From Nanobdellota archaeon (GTDB lineage Archaea; Nanobdellota; Nanobdellia; Woesearchaeales; GW2011-AR9): DNA of 42,603 nucleotides. The stretch lies in the NCBI GenBank assembly GCA_038046425.1, contig JBBSWG010000056.1, positions 1-42,603 of the forward strand. The letters are read 5' to 3'. The translations under genes were made by a program, and so were the position numbers. The notes under the pieces are model-generated. The model was not told the origin of the DNA, made no database searches, and saw nothing but the letters and a program-made list of their open reading frames with translations. Positions 4,058-41,145 of the stretch are shown here, one piece after another; positions within the stretch are counted from its first letter, which is position 1, and every line of letters begins with the position of its first letter.

Positions 4058-6850
4058 GTGAATAGAATAGGAAGAGTTATTGGTGGTGGTAGTTTGCTTA
4101 GCCTGCTGGTTATCCTTCTTCTTGCCTGGTTTGCTGCTGCCGATGAGGAAGTCCACAATATTACGATGTCCGTACGCAATAGCACTTATAGCCTGGTGGG
4201 GGGAGCGAATCTAACCCTCTTCCAGTATGATCCCGTAACCCTTACTGAGACTCTGGTTGCGACCAATGTCACCGATGGAAATGGGACTGCCCTGTTGCTT
4301 AATGTCAATGACACTACTACCGTTCTCTACTACTTTGATGTCCGCATTTACCATAACGGCACCAGCAATGGCAATACTACCGAAATAAATATTCGCGGCA
4401 CGCCCCTGCCCGGCATAAAATTCAATACCTCCCTGCCGCTGGATGCCAATACTTCCACTATCTATACCGTTCCCGCCATCCGCATCAATTTGTCCGCCGT
4501 GAACAATACCGGGGAACATACTAATTTTTCCTATGTGGTGCTGCCTACTTCATTATCATCTAAAATTCCAATTGCCACGCGCCTGGCTGCCGGCCCCGCG
4601 GCAGAATTATATCTTCCCTATCAGCTCAATTACAGCTTTTTCTTTTTCTTTCAGTCTAATATTACGGCTGCGCCCACGACCCCGCCAAGCCAAGTTTTGT
4701 TTACCAACTTTACCACCTATCAACAACAGAGCACTATTTACATCCAAGATAATCTCACGCGCACGAACATTTCCTTGAGCGGCTACATCACCATAACCGG
4801 AAATACCACTCCTGCCAATTGGTCTCAAACCAGAAACTTGGCGCAGGTGTTCGCTATCGTCAGTTCTGCCGGAGGAACAGCTAAAGGCCTTATTCCTCCC
4901 GTGGGAAATATGAGCACGACTTGGCTGGTTAACTCCACTTGGTTTTATAATGTCACGCTTCCGGCTTCCCGCGCGGGCATTCCCATTTTGGCCAGCCTGC
5001 ATACGGAAAATAGCAACGGGGCCAATCCCTCCACCGAATGGTATGCCGGCTATCAGAATATTACCGCCGTCACGGGCCGGGAACTCAGTTGGAATTTTAC
5101 CCTGACGCGGTTGACAGGAACAAATGCCCGGGAGAATGTAACCGGGGTAAACGCCAGCTACTTCCAGGTAAATCTTATTGATGGAGACAGTGCTGATGCC
5201 GCAGTTACTTCCGCTTTCTGTGAAGTAACCGCCGAAGCCGCAGCCGCGGGTGACGGTACGAACCTGGAAATAAGCCGGATGATTACGGCTCCTGATGGCG
5301 ATGGAAGAATCTTTTTTCCTACCCAGCTAGGCAACTATTCTAACGCCACCGTGGAATGTTTTGCTAGCCGCTTTACCCCACTCAAAACTGAAGTTAATAC
5401 TTCTTTGAATAGCACCACCATGAACTTTACGGCCTTTACGATGCAGTCGATTTCCGCCGCCGGGACCATCAGCGATTACAGCACGGCTATCAAGCAAAGC
5501 ACAACCATCCGTGTCCTGCAGTCTACTTCAGCCTGTAATGTCTTTCATCCTGACTTAACGGCCTGCACGCTGTTCACGACTAACGCCGTGTTTGATCCGG
5601 TCCAGGTTCAGATTCCCTTCGCTACGGTCCATATTACCCTTCCGGATGGCAGTATCATCATGCTCGTGAATCAGCAGATGACAGGAAACGGTTTCGTCGC
5701 CCCCCGTTCCCGCCTGTCGGCAGGAGCAGGAACCTCCGACGGAAAAGATGTTTTTGGCTACCGCTTCGGAGCAGCCGTGCCTAAAGACATCGCCTCCCAG
5801 ATATTTATCGGCCTGCGCTATAATGAAACTGTTGAAGATTCAGGGGAAGTCAATTTTAGCCTGTCCATCCTGCGTGATGATGCCGGGCGAATAGTCTGGA
5901 ACCGTAGCGTTGATGCTGCCGCTTCCCGCCCCGCCCTGTTCTCTGATTACAATGAAACGTTATTGCAGCCAACTGGCGTGCTCGCCAGCAAGACGAACAA
6001 AAGCAAGTTGGTTTACGTGAACACGACTAATAATACTTTATGGTATAGCCTCCCTCATTTTTCTGAGTCTGAGCCGGAAGTTTCTGAGCCGGGAGTTGAA
6101 GCTGCTGCTACCGCAGCGAGAGGAGGGTCGGCTGATGGGGGCGGCGGGGGAGGAATAAGCAAAGCTGTAGGGATCTCGTTTCAGCAGGCTATTAATGGTC
6201 TGGCTAAAGGAAACAGTGCCCTCATTTCCGTAGGCAATAGTGGTTTAGCAGTGGAAACTATCTCGTTTGGCGTCACGGAATCTGTGGGAAAGTTTGTGGT
6301 AACAGTCACCAAAGAAGATCGAAGCAGCCTTCCAGCAGAAGCGCGAAGTTTTAGTGGAAAACCCTACCTCTTCCTGAAAATTGCCACGACCTTATCTGAT
6401 GTGGCTTTATCGAATCCTGCGCTCGACTTCAAAGTGCGCAAAAGTTGGCTGACAGAGAATAAAGTCAATAAAAAAGATATCGTCTTGCTGCGCTTTACTG
6501 CTGATAAGTGGAATAATTTACCAACTATTTTGGAAAAAGAGGATGACTTATTCGTATTCTACCGCGCTGAGACACCGGGTTTCAGTTACTTTGTGATTGG
6601 TGAGCGGCAATCATCGCTTCCTTCCGCTAAGAAAGAAATCGAGCAACCGGAACCAGCAGCTGCTGTAGAGCAGCCAGTTTCCGTCGAGCAGAGTTCACTT
6701 CCCCGAGAGGAAATCGGGAGGGAAGAGTTGGAAAGAGAACAGCAGCCGCCGGAAGAAAAACAACAGAGGGCACCATGGTGGCTGGCCGCTGTCCTGGTAG
6801 TGATTGGTATTATTGTTGGCTGGTTCTATGCCTTCCAGAGGAAGAAATGA
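4058..6850 (+). CDS. large secreted cell-surface (S-layer-like) glycoprotein with a PGF-pre-PGF domain and C-terminal TM anchor
   Basis: GTG start preceded by GAGGTG. There is an N-terminal signal/TM segment (LLSLLVILLLAWFAAA) and roughly 40 N-x-S/T sequons by eye. It has a PGF-pre-PGF-like segment ending ETPGFSYFVIGE, an E/P/Q-rich linker, and a C-terminal helix APWWLAAVLVVIGIIVGWFYAF followed by QRKK. Confidence 0.85.
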   Translation: MNRIGRVIGGGSLLSLLVILLLAWFAAADEEVHNITMSVRNSTYSLVGGANLTLFQYDPVTLTETLVATNVTDGNGTALLLNVNDTTTVLYYFDVRIYHNGTSNGNTTEINIRGTPLPGIKFNTSLPLDANTSTIYTVPAIRINLSAVNNTGEHTNFSYVVLPTSLSSKIPIATRLAAGPAAELYLPYQLNYSFFFFFQSNITAAPTTPPSQVLFTNFTTYQQQSTIYIQDNLTRTNISLSGYITITGNTTPANWSQTRNLAQVFAIVSSAGGTAKGLIPPVGNMSTTWLVNSTWFYNVTLPASRAGIPILASLHTENSNGANPSTEWYAGYQNITAVTGRELSWNFTLTRLTGTNARENVTGVNASYFQVNLIDGDSADAAVTSAFCEVTAEAAAAGDGTNLEISRMITAPDGDGRIFFPTQLGNYSNATVECFASRFTPLKTEVNTSLNSTTMNFTAFTMQSISAAGTISDYSTAIKQSTTIRVLQSTSACNVFHPDLTACTLFTTNAVFDPVQVQIPFATVHITLPDGSIIMLVNQQMTGNGFVAPRSRLSAGAGTSDGKDVFGYRFGAAVPKDIASQIFIGLRYNETVEDSGEVNFSLSILRDDAGRIVWNRSVDAAASRPALFSDYNETLLQPTGVLASKTNKSKLVYVNTTNNTLWYSLPHFSESEPEVSEPGVEAAATAARGGSADGGGGGGISKAVGISFQQAINGLAKGNSALISVGNSGLAVETISFGVTESVGKFVVTVTKEDRSSLPAEARSFSGKPYLFLKIATTLSDVALSNPALDFKVRKSWLTENKVNKKDIVLLRFTADKWNNLPTILEKEDDLFVFYRAETPGFSYFVIGERQSSLPSAKKEIEQPEPAAAVEQPVSVEQSSLPREEIGREELEREQQPPEEKQQRAPWWLAAVLVVIGIIVGWFYAFQRKK

Positions 6851-11142: not shown

Positions 11143-11925
11143 TTATGCCTCTTTATACTTCTTTTCTTCACTATACCTCTTCCCCAACACATAACCTGCC
11201 ACTATCACCATCACCACACTAAACCATTGCCCTAAACTTAAGCCCAGATAAAGAATATCTTCCCGAAAAAAGTCCATTAAAAACCTACCAATCCCTTCCC
11301 ACAACACCAGATTCCAGAAGATGAAGCCGGGCTTAAACTCTTTCCATGCTGATAAAAACCATAACCAGCCAAACACCGCCATTCGCTGGAAAAAAGAGTA
11401 AATCATGTTAGGGTGCCGGCAGACATCTCCGTAATCAGGGAAAACGACACACCAGCGCCCATTCCACGGTCGGCCAACTAATTCCCCATTCACAAAATTA
11501 GCCAATCTTCCTAAGGCCAGGGCAAACATCACCGGCACGGCTACTATATCAGCAATCTTCCAGAAATCCTTTTGCTTTTTCTTACAATAATACCAGCAGG
11601 CCACTACAATCCCCATCAAACCGCCATGGAAACTCATGCCCCCTTCCCATATCTTCAATAAGTTCCAGGGCTGGAAGAGGTAATAGCTGGGATTCCAGAA
11701 GAGCATGAATAGGCGGGCACCAATAATTACGCCTAAGATTGAATGAAACGCTAAATCAGAGATGTCATCGCTGGACATATCTAAAATCCCTTTTTTCCTC
11801 GCTTGATTTAGCCACCACATCCCCAGCAGGAAGCCTAGGACATAGACTAGGCCGTACCAGCGAACTTCTAATGGTCCGAGGTTCAATAAAGTTGGGTTAA
11901 GGTTGTGGGTCCACATTTTTATCAA
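11143..11925 (-). CDS. lgt: prolipoprotein diacylglyceryl transferase (bacterial-type Lgt)
   Basis: VRWYGLVYVLGFLLG, SFHGGLMG and ALGRLANFVNGELVGRPW match conserved Lgt blocks (Y-G-L, HGG, GRxGNFxNxExxG). The protein has 7 TM-like segments. Confidence 0.85.
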   Translation of the reverse strand: MIKMWTHNLNPTLLNLGPLEVRWYGLVYVLGFLLGMWWLNQARKKGILDMSSDDISDLAFHSILGVIIGARLFMLFWNPSYYLFQPWNLLKIWEGGMSFHGGLMGIVVACWYYCKKKQKDFWKIADIVAVPVMFALALGRLANFVNGELVGRPWNGRWCVVFPDYGDVCRHPNMIYSFFQRMAVFGWLWFLSAWKEFKPGFIFWNLVLWEGIGRFLMDFFREDILYLGLSLGQWFSVVMVIVAGYVLGKRYSEEKKYKEA

Positions 11926-24703: not shown

Positions 24704-25492
24704 ATGGAAATCAGCCCTGGCCTCGAAATCATCCACACCGCCTTATGGCTCACCCAGAAAAAAATCCTGATCATCAACGACCTTCATCTTGGCTATGAAG
24801 AAGCCTGGCAGCGGAAAGGAATCTTAGTGCCGAAATTCCAGCTGTCGGAGATCATCAAAGAGTTGGAGTCTATTTTAGAAAAAATAGCCCCTGAAAATCC
24901 CACCACGGTTATCATCAACGGCGACCTAAAGCATGAATTTGGGACGGTCTTAAAGCAGGAATGGAAAGAAGTGTTAGCTTTCCTGGATTTTGTGGCTGGA
25001 TTTTGCGAGAATATCGTTATTCTCCGGGGCAATCATGATCCGCTTTTAAGATTTATTGCCGAGAAACGAGGAATTCAGGTGGTAACAGAATATACGGTGA
25101 GCGATATTCTTATTATCCATGGTGATGAAATAGTCGACACGACGTCCCGAACCGGGATAAAACGTCTCATTATCGGCCATGAGCATCCGGCCATCACCCT
25201 AAAAAAAGGCAGCAAGCGCGAGAAGTATAAATGTTTCCTGAAGGGAACGTGGAAAATGCCGGAGGGGAAAACTAGAGAAAAAGCCGGAAAACGGGAAGGA
25301 AAGGCAGCGAAAGAGCTGATTGCCGTGCCCAGCTTTAACCCGCTGTTGGAAGGGACGGATGTGTTAAAGGAGAAGCTGTTGAGTCCGTTCCTGGAAAAGA
25401 TTGCAGATTTTGAAGTGTATGTGGTGGGAAAAGAGGACGTATTCTGTTTTGGGAAGGTGGGGGAAGTGGGAAAGATAGTTAGGTTAAAATAA
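24704..25492 (+). CDS. metallophosphoesterase, SbcD/Mre11-related archaeal type
   Basis: Motifs INDLHLG, INGDLKHEF, LRGNHDP, IIHGDE and IGHEHP. Confidence 0.7.
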   Translation: MEISPGLEIIHTALWLTQKKILIINDLHLGYEEAWQRKGILVPKFQLSEIIKELESILEKIAPENPTTVIINGDLKHEFGTVLKQEWKEVLAFLDFVAGFCENIVILRGNHDPLLRFIAEKRGIQVVTEYTVSDILIIHGDEIVDTTSRTGIKRLIIGHEHPAITLKKGSKREKYKCFLKGTWKMPEGKTREKAGKREGKAAKELIAVPSFNPLLEGTDVLKEKLLSPFLEKIADFEVYVVGKEDVFCFGKVGEVGKIVRLK

Positions 25493-32879: not shown

Positions 32880-34187
32880 ATGAATCTCCCTTTCATCCCC
32901 CGCACCCTCCTGCTGAGCCTAACTTTTCTTCTGGCCGTACTCCTGCTCCCTCCAGTTCATACCTATCTCTTTCCCGCCATTCTTGTACTCTTCCTCCTCC
33001 TGCTCTTTAATTCCCGGAAAGAAACGGGGAAAGAAGCCCAGTATGATCGGTATCTGTTAGGCCTGCTGCTGCTCACGTTGGTAATGGCAAAATTGCTCTT
33101 CCCTGATCTTGACCAACTGACGCTCATCGTACGTACTTCTTCTCTCAGCGCTTTTGTATTACTCCACGCGGTCCTGCTGATTGGTCCCTGGTCACGCTTT
33201 TCCGCTGCCATACGAAAACTCTACTTCTATCGCCGGCATTTAGGCGTGGCGGTACTGTTGCTGGGAAGCTTACATGCTGCTTTAATCTTCTCCCGCTATT
33301 TTAATTACTCAGTACGAGACACGTTTGGCTCTATTTTCACTGTTTATGGTTTTACCGCTTTGTTCATTTTTCTCTGGCTCGGCGTGACTTCCTGGGATGA
33401 AATACAAAAACGTGTCTCGACACGATGGTGGAATATCGTCCATGGGCTGCTGATGATACTCTATGTAGGGCTGGCCATGTATTTATACGCTCTCCATAAG
33501 AATGAAACTGGGATCATCGCCCACGTGTTCGTTTTAGGATTATTTTTACTCTTCTGGATCATCGTGGCCCCTTACAGCCTGATCCGTAAAGTCCTCGCTA
33601 CCTATGTCTTCGGCTGGAAACAGCTCCATCTACTGATTTATGTTGCTTATATCTCGATTCTGCTGCACGCCTGGTTAGGCTTTTTCACGCTGCAGAACAG
33701 TATCATCAAGGGATTGTTTTGGTTCTCACCGATCTTGATATTTGGATCCCATGCTCTCGGTTGGCTGTACCGCTGGCGAAAAGATCAGCAGATTTATGGA
33801 GAGATACGGGAGATTAATCAACAAGTTATCGAGGGGGACAAAACTTTTATTGGCGTAGCTCGCCAGGATGATCTTCCCGAAGGAAAAGGAAAGAAAGTGT
33901 ACGTGAACCAGCAGCCCGTCGCCCTGTTTAGGCAAGGGAAGGAAATCTATGCTCTTTCCAGTGTTTGTGCTCACCAGAAAGGGCCTTTGGATCAGGGACG
34001 ATTAGTCCAAGGTGTTGTGGAATGTCCCTGGCATTACTGGACCTATGACATCACGACGGGAAGTTTCCTGGGGAAAGAGAACTTTTGCCTGCCACGGTAC
34101 GAAGTACGAGTCAAAAAGGGAGTAGTCTTGGTAAGCCGCGAGCCGGTGAATAAAGAAAAAGTTAAACACTGCTCGTTTTTCATCTAA
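32880..34187 (+). CDS. fusion of a ferric-reductase-like (YedZ/MsrQ-type) 6-TM domain and a C-terminal Rieske [2Fe-2S] domain
   Basis: The TM region has conserved His residues (LLHAVLLIGPW, YRRHLGVAVLLLGSLHA, LLHAWLGF). The C-terminus CAHQKGPLDQGRLVQGVVECPWH is a CxH-x16-CxxH Rieske motif. The start is taken as Met9 of the track ORF. Confidence 0.7.
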   Translation: MNLPFIPRTLLLSLTFLLAVLLLPPVHTYLFPAILVLFLLLLFNSRKETGKEAQYDRYLLGLLLLTLVMAKLLFPDLDQLTLIVRTSSLSAFVLLHAVLLIGPWSRFSAAIRKLYFYRRHLGVAVLLLGSLHAALIFSRYFNYSVRDTFGSIFTVYGFTALFIFLWLGVTSWDEIQKRVSTRWWNIVHGLLMILYVGLAMYLYALHKNETGIIAHVFVLGLFLLFWIIVAPYSLIRKVLATYVFGWKQLHLLIYVAYISILLHAWLGFFTLQNSIIKGLFWFSPILIFGSHALGWLYRWRKDQQIYGEIREINQQVIEGDKTFIGVARQDDLPEGKGKKVYVNQQPVALFRQGKEIYALSSVCAHQKGPLDQGRLVQGVVECPWHYWTYDITTGSFLGKENFCLPRYEVRVKKGVVLVSREPVNKEKVKHCSFFI

Positions 34188-34822
34188 TTCTTCTCATCCT
34201 TAAACTTAATTTTCCCATGACTGCCATCACAGAACGGCTTATTTTTACTTGCTCCACAGCGACAGAGCGTGTAATGTTCTAAAGAGTCGGGCCGGGAATT
34301 TATTTCATCACGCAATTCTACCCCGCCAACCACATAATAAGGCCCCTCCTTGGAGACCCTGATTCCCGGCTGACGGCTAAAGTCATCATAGATTTTCTGT
34401 TTGATTTTATAGCGGAGAGCACCGGAAGGACAGAGCCTGATGGTGGAAATGATCTTTTCCGCAGCCGCCTTATCTGGGTGAGGAACTCTTTTTCCATTCT
34501 CAAATGTCCAGAATACTTCCGGCGAGCGGCCGTCACAGAAGCCAGCGTGAGCACAAACCCCTTCGTTATCTGAAATAGTTACTTCTTTTCCTTGGAAATC
34601 ATGTCGCTCTTGAAGAGTCGCTCCCGGTAACTTGTCGCTATGAAACCTGATTTTTCCATGTGTACCGTCACAGTAGGGCTTGCTCTTAGAATGACCGCAG
34701 CGACAGAGAGCTGTTACCGGCTTGGTTTCCAGTGGCTGGTTATGAGAATTAGTGAAATGAGACAGTTGCCTGACGATATAGGGGCCATCGTTCATGACAT
34801 CGATGACTGGCTTTTCGGGCAT
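34184..34822 (-). CDS. CDGSH iron-sulfur protein (2x CDGSH domains flanking a mono-cluster 4Fe-4S-like segment)
   Basis: CRCGHSKSKPYCDGTHGK and CRCGASKNKPFCDGSHGK, with a central GVCAHAGFCDG...RLCPSGAL. I trimmed the start to the Met at 34822, because the longer track ORF overlaps the tRNA-Glu 3' end. It ends in TAG. Confidence 0.85.
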   Translation of the reverse strand: MPEKPVIDVMNDGPYIVRQLSHFTNSHNQPLETKPVTALCRCGHSKSKPYCDGTHGKIRFHSDKLPGATLQERHDFQGKEVTISDNEGVCAHAGFCDGRSPEVFWTFENGKRVPHPDKAAAEKIISTIRLCPSGALRYKIKQKIYDDFSRQPGIRVSKEGPYYVVGGVELRDEINSRPDSLEHYTLCRCGASKNKPFCDGSHGKIKFKDEKN

Positions 34823-34847
34823 GGTGGATTCCTGGTCAAGAAAAAAA

Positions 34848-35043
34848 TGCCTCGGCCGGGATTTTCGTTTTTCCCCCACGATAGGGGTTGATGAGGGGCT
34901 AGGCCCCTTATTTTCGAACCCGGGTCACCGCCTCGAAAGGGCAGTATGATAGTTTGTCCCTGGACAAACCCTACCGATCGAAGGTTTGTTGCGGTCCGGA
35001 TAGTGTTAACGTTACCAAGTAACGTTATCTACACCACCGAGGC
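34848..35043 (-). tRNA. tRNA-Glu (anticodon UUC), 196 nt, carrying a ~51-nt T-loop insertion and ~70 nt of extra sequence in the D-loop region
   Basis: Minus strand reads GCCTCGG-TG-GTGT-AG-[79 nt containing TATCCGG]-TCAT-A-CTGCC-CTTTCGA-GGCGG-TGAC-CCGGG-TTCGAA[51 nt]T-CCCGG-CCGAGGC-A, followed by T7. The acceptor (7 bp), anticodon (5 bp, one G-U) and T (5 bp) stems all pair. The D-stem GTGT/TCAT has the same pattern I recall from haloarchaeal tRNA-Glu. An A/T-rich box lies about 25-32 nt upstream. Confidence 0.8.
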
Positions 35044-35102
35044 ATTAGGGGCGTGAGCAGGGGATGGTTTAAAAAGATTACTCTAGAATTTTCGGTGTTG
35101 GT

Positions 35103-40119: not shown

Positions 40120-41145
40120 TCAATACCTCCACCTGGCCTTTCTTCCCCGGTCATCAACGTGGGCAAAGCCGTTAGCCCGGCCTATACCCCCATTCCGGAA
40201 CAGCTTTTCCACTCGTTGATCAAAAGTTCGCCGCTGTTTTATTTTCATCGGCGAGATGTCCACATCTACGCCATCACCAGAAGAATGCCGGCTGATCGTG
40301 GGGTGACGACCATAGACGCGCCGATAGAGACGGTCATTGTAGCCATAGGAGCGATAGCCTGACTGGATGAATAGCGACCGTCCAGCTTGCTTTCGTAACT
40401 GGTCTAATTTTTGCAGGAGGGCCAAGTCCAGACGGATATAAGTATTATAACGGTCCCCAGCATAAGTCTGCATATATTCTTTCCGCGCTAAAGAAGGCGT
40501 GCCGATATGGGCAAATTCCGCCAGGGTGAAATAGCGAGAGACCCGATCATCAAGCGCCGCCCGGGGAACGCGTAACAGAGGATTTCCGGACTGGTTGGGA
40601 TCATAGAATTCTTTTCCCGGGCCGATCAGGTTAGGATCAGTTACCACTTCCAGTTTCAATCCGCTGGGGAAACGCACGGTTTTAGCTTTAATTGGCTTAT
40701 TCTTCTTTCTTCTCTTTCCTGGTGTGCTGGGTGTATACTGTTCCTCATGATCTTCTACTTGGACCTGGCTGGTGGACTTAGCGCGTGGTTTCCGACAAGG
40801 CAGCTCTAAGACCGTATTGGGATGAATGGTACCTATATCTTTAATCCGATTGTAGGCAGCAATTTCTGCTATGGTCGTCCCTTCCCGTTGAGCGATGTCC
40901 CAGAGGGAGTCGTCTTGTTTAACGGTATAGGTTCTGGAAAGATGAACTTTCTGCCCCACCTGCAGCTTTAATGGTTTGATGCCGGGATTACAGCTTAACA
41001 AGTCATCTACGGTTGAGCCAGTTTTATGGCCGATATGCTCTAAGGTGTCGTTAGGCTTAACCTTATAATCGCGGGCTTCAGCGAGAGAAGAGGTGGCAAA
41101 GTAGAGGGCGGTGGCGAGAGTGGGGATGGAAAGGTATGGTTTCAT
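40120..41145 (-). CDS. secreted 2x LysM plus peptidase M15A (DUF882/YcbK-like) cell-wall hydrolase
   Basis: Signal peptide MKPYLSIPTLATALYFATSSLAEA. LysM repeats (YKVKPNDTLEHIGHKTGSTVDDLLSCNP; YTVKQDDSLWDIAQREGTTIAEIAAYN). The C-terminus SGYRSYGYNDRLY...SRHSSGDGVDVDI...GIGRANGFAHVDDRG carries the M15 zinc-ligand pattern H..D...H. Confidence 0.8.
   Translation of the reverse strand: MKPYLSIPTLATALYFATSSLAEARDYKVKPNDTLEHIGHKTGSTVDDLLSCNPGIKPLKLQVGQKVHLSRTYTVKQDDSLWDIAQREGTTIAEIAAYNRIKDIGTIHPNTVLELPCRKPRAKSTSQVQVEDHEEQYTPSTPGKRRKKNKPIKAKTVRFPSGLKLEVVTDPNLIGPGKEFYDPNQSGNPLLRVPRAALDDRVSRYFTLAEFAHIGTPSLARKEYMQTYAGDRYNTYIRLDLALLQKLDQLRKQAGRSLFIQSGYRSYGYNDRLYRRVYGRHPTISRHSSGDGVDVDISPMKIKQRRTFDQRVEKLFRNGGIGRANGFAHVDDRGRKARWRY

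Follow-up and report, generated by a model that had tools for sequence, protein, structure and literature searches.

The 42,603-nucleotide stretch of contig JBBSWG010000056.1 analysed here (the window) carries on its minus strand a gene for a glutamate tRNA with the anticodon UUC, tRNA-Glu(UUC), whose 75 nucleotides (nt) are spread over 196 nt. A preliminary description of the window had proposed that this gene holds three non-canonical introns and none at position 37/38, a proposal now supported by comparison with homologous genes and by the register found at 14 junctions. The canonical stems, the discriminator A and the run of seven T listed there were all found at 35043..34848, minus strand: the acceptor stem GCCTCGG/CCGAGGC, the D-stem GTGT/TCAT, the anticodon arm CTGCC-CTTTCGA-GGCGG and the T-stem CCGGG/CCCGG, with a variable region of 4 nt. 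Every stem pairs except for a U13-U22 mismatch, which is common to all homologs. The anticodon loop is unbroken, and thus there is no 37/38 intron. The features of the gene are as follows.

35068..35075, minus strand: TATA-like box TTTTTAAA, at -32 to -25 relative to tRNA position 1
34848..35043, minus strand: whole interrupted tRNA-Glu(UUC) gene, 196 nt, comprising 75 nt of exons and 121 nt of introns
35029..35043, minus strand: exon 1, 15 nt, tRNA positions 1-15, GCCTCGG TG GTGT AG; boundary set by the intron-free homolog L146 and the splice-motif register
35001..35028, minus strand: intron 1, 28 nt, at position 15/16, with a relaxed bulge-helix-bulge (BHB) motif of HBh' type
34996..35000, minus strand: exon 2, TCCGG, that is, U16 C17 C17a G18 G19, on the basis of the D-arms of homologs L146, L188 and L136
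34954..34995, minus strand: intron 2, 42 nt, at position 19/20, boundaries from homologs
34913..34953, minus strand: exon 3, 41 nt, tRNA positions 20-59, holding the remaining D-loop, the 3' strand of the D-stem, the anticodon arm (CTTTCGA), the variable region, the 5' strand of the T-stem and TTCGAA
34862..34912, minus strand: intron 3, 51 nt, at position 59/60, with a relaxed BHB motif of hBH type
34848..34861, minus strand: exon 4, 14 nt, holding U60, the 3' strands of the T-stem and acceptor stem, and discriminator A
34841..34847, minus strand: run of seven T, an archaeal-type terminator, directly after the discriminator

In the gene's own coordinates the exons occupy nucleotides 1-15, 44-48, 91-131 and 183-196, and the introns 16-43, 49-90 and 132-182; CCA is not encoded after exon 4. 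The T-loop insert had been estimated at about 51 nt and is exactly that long, with both of the hairpins attributed to it. The D-loop region needed some correction: 81 nt, not 79, separate the two D-stem strands; the two inserts proposed there are present, at 28 and 42 nt instead of about 26 and 40; and the piece bearing G18G19 does lie between them, as TCCGG (35000..34996) and not the longer TATCCGG. Some junctions can be placed in more than one frame. For intron 3, positions 58/59 and 57/58 are equivalent to 59/60 by sequence (a short AA repeat, with CGAAAAT at both junctions), which bears out the ambiguity already ascribed to this heptamer, while for intron 2 an AC repeat makes frames 1 or 2 nt further 3' equivalent. 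The four exons are colinear within 196 nt, with one promoter and one terminator, so that the gene is neither split nor permuted. Group I and group II introns possess a self-splicing ribozyme core of hundreds of nucleotides; we ruled them out, as the inserts measure 28, 42 and 51 nt and have no Rfam match.

The exon boundaries rest on homologs. A metagenome scan with an exon pattern covering the anticodon arm and the T-arm returned 120 tRNA-Glu loci. The exon sequence of the window gene, ACTGCCCTTTCGAGGC(G/A)GTGACCCGGGTTCGAA, accompanied by a similar ATCTTTTTAAA promoter box, is shared by nine distinct genes, which differ in their inserts.

L146: no intron
L188 and L136: insert in the T-loop only, of 40 and 35 nt
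L085, L087 (= L162), L107, L127 and L179: single insert, after GTGTAG only, of 22-32 nt
Window gene: three inserts

In L146, L188 and L136 the D-arm is unbroken and reads GTGTAG-TCCGG-ACTATCAT, and it is this uninterrupted arm that sets the exon and intron boundaries in the window gene. Among homologs with an identical exon 3 the introns differ in sequence, with the splice-motif register unchanged. The flanking genes of these homologs encode no protein in common with the window, the tRNA and promoter sequences being the only link, and their contigs have a G+C content of 32-41%, against 47-48% in the window. We conclude from both observations that the homologs come from other genomes.

Roughly 11% of the 120 retrieved loci are interrupted, and some of these fall outside the group of nine. 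The tRNA-Glu(UUC) gene of L197 (around 870-1060) has a canonical 23-nt intron at 19/20 and a 92-nt intron at 59/60, and that of L166 has a 30-nt intron at 19/20. L116 and L120 present inserts near positions 20b-22, and L137 a long T-loop insert with an ambiguous 3' T-stem. About 800 nt from the interrupted tRNA-Glu of L127, ARAGORN reports an 89-nt 'tRNA-???' with a four-base anticodon (L127:7087-7175, minus strand), which may be a mis-parsed intron-containing tRNA.

Each junction was scored at its homolog-defined splice site, against 5000 shuffles per intron, for the following geometry: the exon strand of a 4-bp central helix (H), a 3-nt bulge cut after its second nucleotide, an inner helix, the complementary strand H', a second 3-nt bulge also cut after its second nucleotide, and an outer helix. 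In intron 1, the central helix is GUGU/ACAC (H=4), flanked by the bulges AG|A and UA|U and followed inwards by a 9-bp helix, TAACGTTAC/GTAACGTTA; the outer helix is absent, which makes the motif HBh' type, and 0/5000 shuffled introns match it (P<0.0002). The 5' strand of the D-stem would here provide the exon half of the central helix, next to the 9-bp hairpin of the intron. In intron 3, the central helix UUCG/CGAA (H=4) is stacked on the 5-bp T-stem CCGGG/CCCGG, which acts as the outer helix. Its 3' bulge is AA|U; at the 5' site, AA|A, the structure widens into a multiloop from which the hairpins AGGGGC/GCCCCT and CCCC/GGGG project (hBH type, P=0.018). T-loop positions 54-57 would form the exon half of this helix on top of the T-stem, in an arrangement that could be regarded as the T-loop equivalent of the canonical 37/38 site. 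As modelled, introns 1 and 3 are thus relaxed BHB introns, of types HBh' and hBH respectively.

The register of these two motifs recurs in nine homologous introns. Five homologous 15/16 introns have GCAC as H', with a U13·G pair and not U13-A, and their inner helices are of at least three unrelated kinds. At 59/60, L188, L136 and L197 have introns of unrelated sequence that share the register. Over the window and its homologs together, 14/14 junctions have one orientation and one register, with a central helix of 3-4 bp.

Removing the three introns in silico gives a 75-nt product that ARAGORN identifies as tRNA-Glu(ttc), with all 75 exon positions intact. It is identical to the intron-free L146 at 71/75 positions, and the four differences amount to two compensated pairs of the acceptor stem. 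In five distinct spliced sequences, pairs 4-69 and 5-68 alternate between C-G and U-A with 100% pairing; at the sequence level, this covariation is the mark of selection on the stems. The 196-nt precursor has a predicted folding energy of -80.1 kcal/mol (z = -4.3 relative to dinucleotide shuffles), and its predicted minimum-free-energy structure has a closed acceptor stem and two BHB-like junctions, the motifs of introns 1 and 3.

The gene also keeps its own transcription signals. A ATCTTTTTAAA box lies at the same upstream distance in the tRNA-Glu genes L085, L087, L146 and L188 as the TATA-like box does here, and the homologous tRNA-Glu genes likewise end in T-runs. We therefore favour, with a probability of about 0.85, a functional tRNA-Glu(UUC) gene of a Woesearchaeota archaeon that is spliced at three sites. 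Its own TATA-box promoter would drive a precursor transcript of about 196 nt, the splicing endonuclease EndA would cut this precursor at three BHB-type motifs, an RNA ligase would join the four exons, and CCA would be added post-transcriptionally.

Could the locus instead be a decaying pseudogene, burdened with three insertions, silent and dispensable now that another tRNA-Glu(UUC) serves the cell? Standard tools do fail to recognise it. ARAGORN finds zero tRNAs across the whole unspliced window, and Rfam has no match in the unspliced window at gathering thresholds and misses the tRNA gene at E≤10 as well. The same failure extends to relatives: in a control, ARAGORN and Rfam detected L146 only (57.3 bits, Rfam tRNA) and no interrupted gene. 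Decay would also fit the fact that intron 2 has no convincing splice motif in the primary transcript, and a second copy might lie beyond the sequence covered. However, no stem or position is degraded, all 75 exon positions being intact and the differences from homologs being compensatory stem changes only; neither promoter box nor terminator has been lost, and both are placed as in the homologs. Each insert, moreover, lies at a site where independent homologs have BHB-type introns in the same register, and the intron-poorer homologs belong to genomes of different G+C content and do not represent the second copy. DPANN genomes usually have single-copy tRNA genes, which also speaks against this explanation. 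We consider it improbable.

No other hidden tRNA appeared in the window with Rfam at E≤10 or with a custom T-arm and acceptor scan, although this Rfam search has little power for the purpose since it missed the exons of the window's own tRNA.

Another explanation would make the locus an assembly chimera, created by mis-joining reads from co-occurring tRNA-Glu variants. Several such variants coexist in the same aquifer, and four Logan contigs (L204-L207) end in the conserved exon 3, an indication that assemblers struggle there. Yet these four contigs carry exon 1, intron 1, exon 2 and intron 2 without a break, and the 311 nt of gene and flanks recur unchanged in three contigs of 5-25 kb (L201-L203) that were assembled independently from different Hainich groundwater samples. 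A chimeric origin is effectively refuted. The four Logan contigs all terminate within exon 3 at …GGCGGTGAC, as would be expected if assembly graphs branch where strains share an exon and differ in the T-loop intron.

The middle intron is the least straightforward of the three. It has an internal 9-bp hairpin, ACAAACCTT/AGGGTTTGT, and in the primary transcript only 3 of the 4 central-helix pairs can form (H=3, P=0.25). Its helix takes its exon half from G15-U16-C17-C17a, a run that intron 1 splits between G15 and U16. Without intron 1, GUCC/GGAC can pair in full (H=4, P=0.04), with bulges GG|A and AA|A that reproduce the D-loop of the homologs, AGUCCGGACUA, exactly. The BHB-like folds that the preliminary description suggested looking for at the junctions are seen for introns 1 and 3, whereas at intron 2 the motif is weak and complete only without intron 1. 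We also looked for a canonical BHB motif for intron 2 in the primary transcript, scanning both orientations and all frames; the best boundaries leave a D-loop of more than 20 nt, and these best-scoring motifs were rejected because the homologs fix the mature D-loop.

As the central helix of intron 2 is complete only once intron 1 is gone, and its exon half whole only after that excision, intron 1 may have to be excised first. From the modelled structures, we give this order about an even chance.

Alternatively, EndA might splice introns 1 and 3 only, and the 42-nt insert be kept as a D-loop expansion hairpin or removed in some other way. The insert's location after G19, in a D-loop region of variable length, would suit this, as would its own stable 9-bp hairpin and a BHB motif that is minimal and not part of the predicted lowest-energy fold. 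Two non-orthologous tRNA-Glu genes, L197 and L166, argue otherwise: each is interrupted at 19/20 by an intron that shares the GUCC helix and the GG|A bulge and whose motif is contiguous. That of L197 is also canonical and has an inner helix of 6-7 bp (P<0.0002). Removing intron 1 would also yield a 4-bp helix in precisely the register that gives the homologs' D-loop AGUCCGGACUA, and we know of no described tRNA with a D-loop expansion of some 40 nt. We give this alternative very little credence and retain splicing at all three sites.

The preliminary description predicted an EndA of relaxed specificity elsewhere in the genome. The enzyme that would perform this splicing was sought in the window, and the loci of two relatives happened to encode EndA, at L063:8163-8759 (minus strand, 198 aa) and L052:2989-3615 (plus strand, 208 aa). 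Both proteins combine the N-terminal and catalytic Pfam domains (PF02778 + PF01974) and are single-unit α-type enzymes, whose closest solved structures are the catalytic subunit of Nanoarchaeum equitans EndA, 3IEY_A (E=2e-36), and the α4 EndA of Methanocaldococcus jannaschii, 1A79 (E=7e-35). At the N terminus both are extended by a lysine-rich stretch of about 25-35 residues with no counterpart in the M. jannaschii protein, and the catalytic domain is free of insertions. In DPANN lineages, α4-type EndAs with an "L3" loop have been associated with disrupted tRNA genes, in a sample that took in a Woesearchaeote genome, and it was pointed out that the incomplete tRNA sets of new DPANN genomes imply disrupted genes yet to be identified (Kaneta et al. 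2018, PMC5829648).

Several observations weigh against splicing at three sites. No EndA or ligase gene was found in the 42.6-kb window (Pfam on 40 open reading frames (ORFs), NCBIfam on the 10 without a Pfam hit). The EndAs of the relatives are colinear with the M. jannaschii α4 enzyme, which has strict specificity, and show no visible inserted loop, so that a broad specificity of the host EndA is our assumption. The motif of intron 2 is a minimal core that consists of a 4-bp helix and a single inner base pair and lacks an outer helix; the fold bearing it lies 4.6 kcal/mol above the predicted minimum for the intermediate lacking intron 1, and its chance probability of about 0.04-0.05 is not compelling alone. 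Splicing itself we infer from sequence and predicted fold, and a second, intact tRNA-Glu(UUC) may exist elsewhere in the genome, the sequence covered being that of the window.

What organism does the gene belong to? The window encodes archaeal informational proteins (fibrillarin, Nop5, Pop5, aIF2α, aIF2γ, ABCE1, proteasome α, RadA and L44e). Directly upstream of the tRNA lies a gene for a SpoIIM-like membrane protein, which has homologs 66-89% identical in 80 genome bins, the majority labelled Woesearchaeota, Nanoarchaeota or Nanoarchaeia. Because of these informational genes and these homologs in Woesearchaeal bins, the host is, judging by gene content, a DPANN archaeon of the Woesearchaeota group, and the analogy with ARMAN-type archaea drawn in the preliminary description was apt. 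In none of the 80 relatives' loci does this tRNA adjoin the SpoIIM-like gene; ARAGORN reported almost no tRNAs in these Woesearchaeal loci, and no orthologous tRNA was obtained from them.

The 281-nt gap that contains the tRNA is left unannotated by gene callers. Downstream, a CDGSH iron-sulfur gene (34184-34879, minus strand) has its longest ORF starting from GTG, in which case it overlaps the last 32 nt of the tRNA; public calls place its start at an ATG at 34822 (212 aa), 26 nt past the tRNA. An over-extended coding sequence of this kind could hide the tRNA. Elsewhere in the window, positions 24709-24778 (minus strand) give a weak Rfam match to the archaeal C/D-box small RNA sR19 (17.1 bits, E=7.7), in which a C box resembling UGAUGA stands close to the 5' end and CUGA close to the 3' end. 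This match is located at one edge of an intergenic gap of 247 nt, and the fibrillarin and Nop5 genes are 2-4 kb away. It may be a guide RNA. Two bacterial-type envelope enzymes occur in this DPANN context, at 11143-11925 and 40120-41145 (both minus strand): a homolog of prolipoprotein diacylglyceryl transferase (Lgt, PF01790, E=4e-67) and a protein with LysM and peptidase M15 domains. They may be horizontal acquisitions or have functions in host interaction. Finally, a 930-aa protein without a Pfam hit (4058-6850, plus strand) matches the NCBIfam PGF-pre-PGF domain in its C-terminal part (E=5e-23); it probably sits at the cell surface and carries an archaeal sorting signal.

Within the introns themselves, reading the three sequences revealed no UGAUGA or CUGA box, and hence no intron-encoded C/D-box guide RNA. 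A BLAST search with the three introns as queries, covering the window and some 2 Mb of loci, returned only short, chance-level matches that would not point to intron mobility.

Since neither ARAGORN nor Rfam detects this gene or its interrupted homologs, DPANN annotations that rely on such tools would wrongly seem to lack tRNA-Glu. Manual searches for unidentified disrupted tRNAs have been urged for DPANN lineages (Kaneta et al. 2018, PMC5829648), and the present locus is a worked example of such a search, with exon boundaries defined by homologs. The homolog series, with no intron, an intron at 15/16 only, at 59/60 only or at all three sites, constitutes a compact natural system for BHB intron gain and loss outside Thermoproteales. 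The predicted nested dependency of intron 2 on intron 1 would also offer a simple in-vitro way of examining how relaxed motifs are recognised by an α-type DPANN EndA.

How does this gene compare with known systems? It is well established that an archaeal tRNA can have from one to three introns at non-canonical positions, three being the maximum reported (PMC3239211, PMC4033280). The preliminary description, which considered three introns in one tRNA extreme, thus overstated the case: the number equals the published maximum. Thermoproteales have multi-intron tRNA genes in which as many as three BHB introns occur together (Sugahara et al. 2007/2008, cited in PMC4033280 and PMC3239211). Like ours, a gene of this kind may hold as many as three short introns, with the D- and T-arms among their non-canonical sites; the motifs are likewise relaxed hBH and HBh' ones, and close tRNA genes vary in the presence of introns. 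There are several differences: Thermoproteales are hyperthermophilic crenarchaea with an (αβ)2 EndA, whereas the host here is a DPANN archaeon, mesophilic and from groundwater; the window gene has its three introns at sites other than 37/38; and no repeated or transposed intron copies were found in the window and about 2 Mb of loci.

Another known system is ARMAN-2 (Candidatus Micrarchaeum), also a DPANN archaeon, whose pre-tRNA-Cys(GCA) has a 59/60 intron with an hBH motif and whose pre-tRNA-Pro(GGG) has two T-loop introns; the 59/60 hBH motif is cleaved in vitro by the ARMAN-2 EndA (PMC3239211). The 59/60 intron of its tRNA-Cys has the same architecture as intron 3. However, ARMAN-2 has a three-unit ε2 EndA with a specific loop, in contrast to the single-unit α-type EndA of the Woesearchaeal relatives, and the window gene, unlike the ARMAN-2 genes, has three introns, two of them in the D-loop. 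Disrupted tRNA genes have been noted in DPANN archaea more widely (PMC5829648).

For the D-loop, there is a parallel in the pre-tRNA-Glu(UUC) of Methanopyrus kandleri, which contains an HBh' intron in the D-loop as well as a canonical intron, the former being removed efficiently in vitro only by a broad-specificity EndA (PMC5829648). The isoacceptor is the same, as is the presence of a non-canonical HBh' intron in the D-loop. Yet M. kandleri also has a 37/38 intron, of which the window gene has none, and its D-loop intron is located just before A21 and not at 15/16 or 19/20.

Outside Archaea, the nuclear tRNA-Ile(UAU) of Cyanidioschyzon merolae has three BHB introns, in the D-stem, at 37/38 and in the T-loop, with ordered processing (PMC3728597). 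Like the window gene, it has three BHB-type introns, with the D-arm and the T-loop among the interrupted regions. The host is in that case a eukaryote and the order of removal is experimental; its BHBs fold independently and the order tracks motif stability, whereas in the window gene intron 1 interrupts the central helix of intron 2, and the order would be imposed by structure.

Multi-intron archaeal tRNAs and disrupted DPANN tRNAs have thus been published already, and the present gene, an all-non-canonical three-intron tRNA-Glu from a Woesearchaeon, is a well-supported further case of an established phenomenon. Three aspects are less ordinary: the need, as predicted by the folds, for intron 1 to be gone before intron 2 can be spliced; the apparent difference in intron presence among genes with identical exons; and the possibility that an α-type EndA devoid of known specificity loops handles relaxed motifs. 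They could be combined in a single view, in which EndA could not act on intron 2 until intron 1 had been excised and the exons joined, the zero, one, two or three introns at three fixed sites on identical exons in related genomes would reflect active gain or loss of BHB introns in groundwater Woesearchaeota, and a loop-less α-type EndA would process the relaxed motifs. That all of these hold together is a tentative proposal, and one we would rather doubt than affirm, but it is the most novel view of the window gene.

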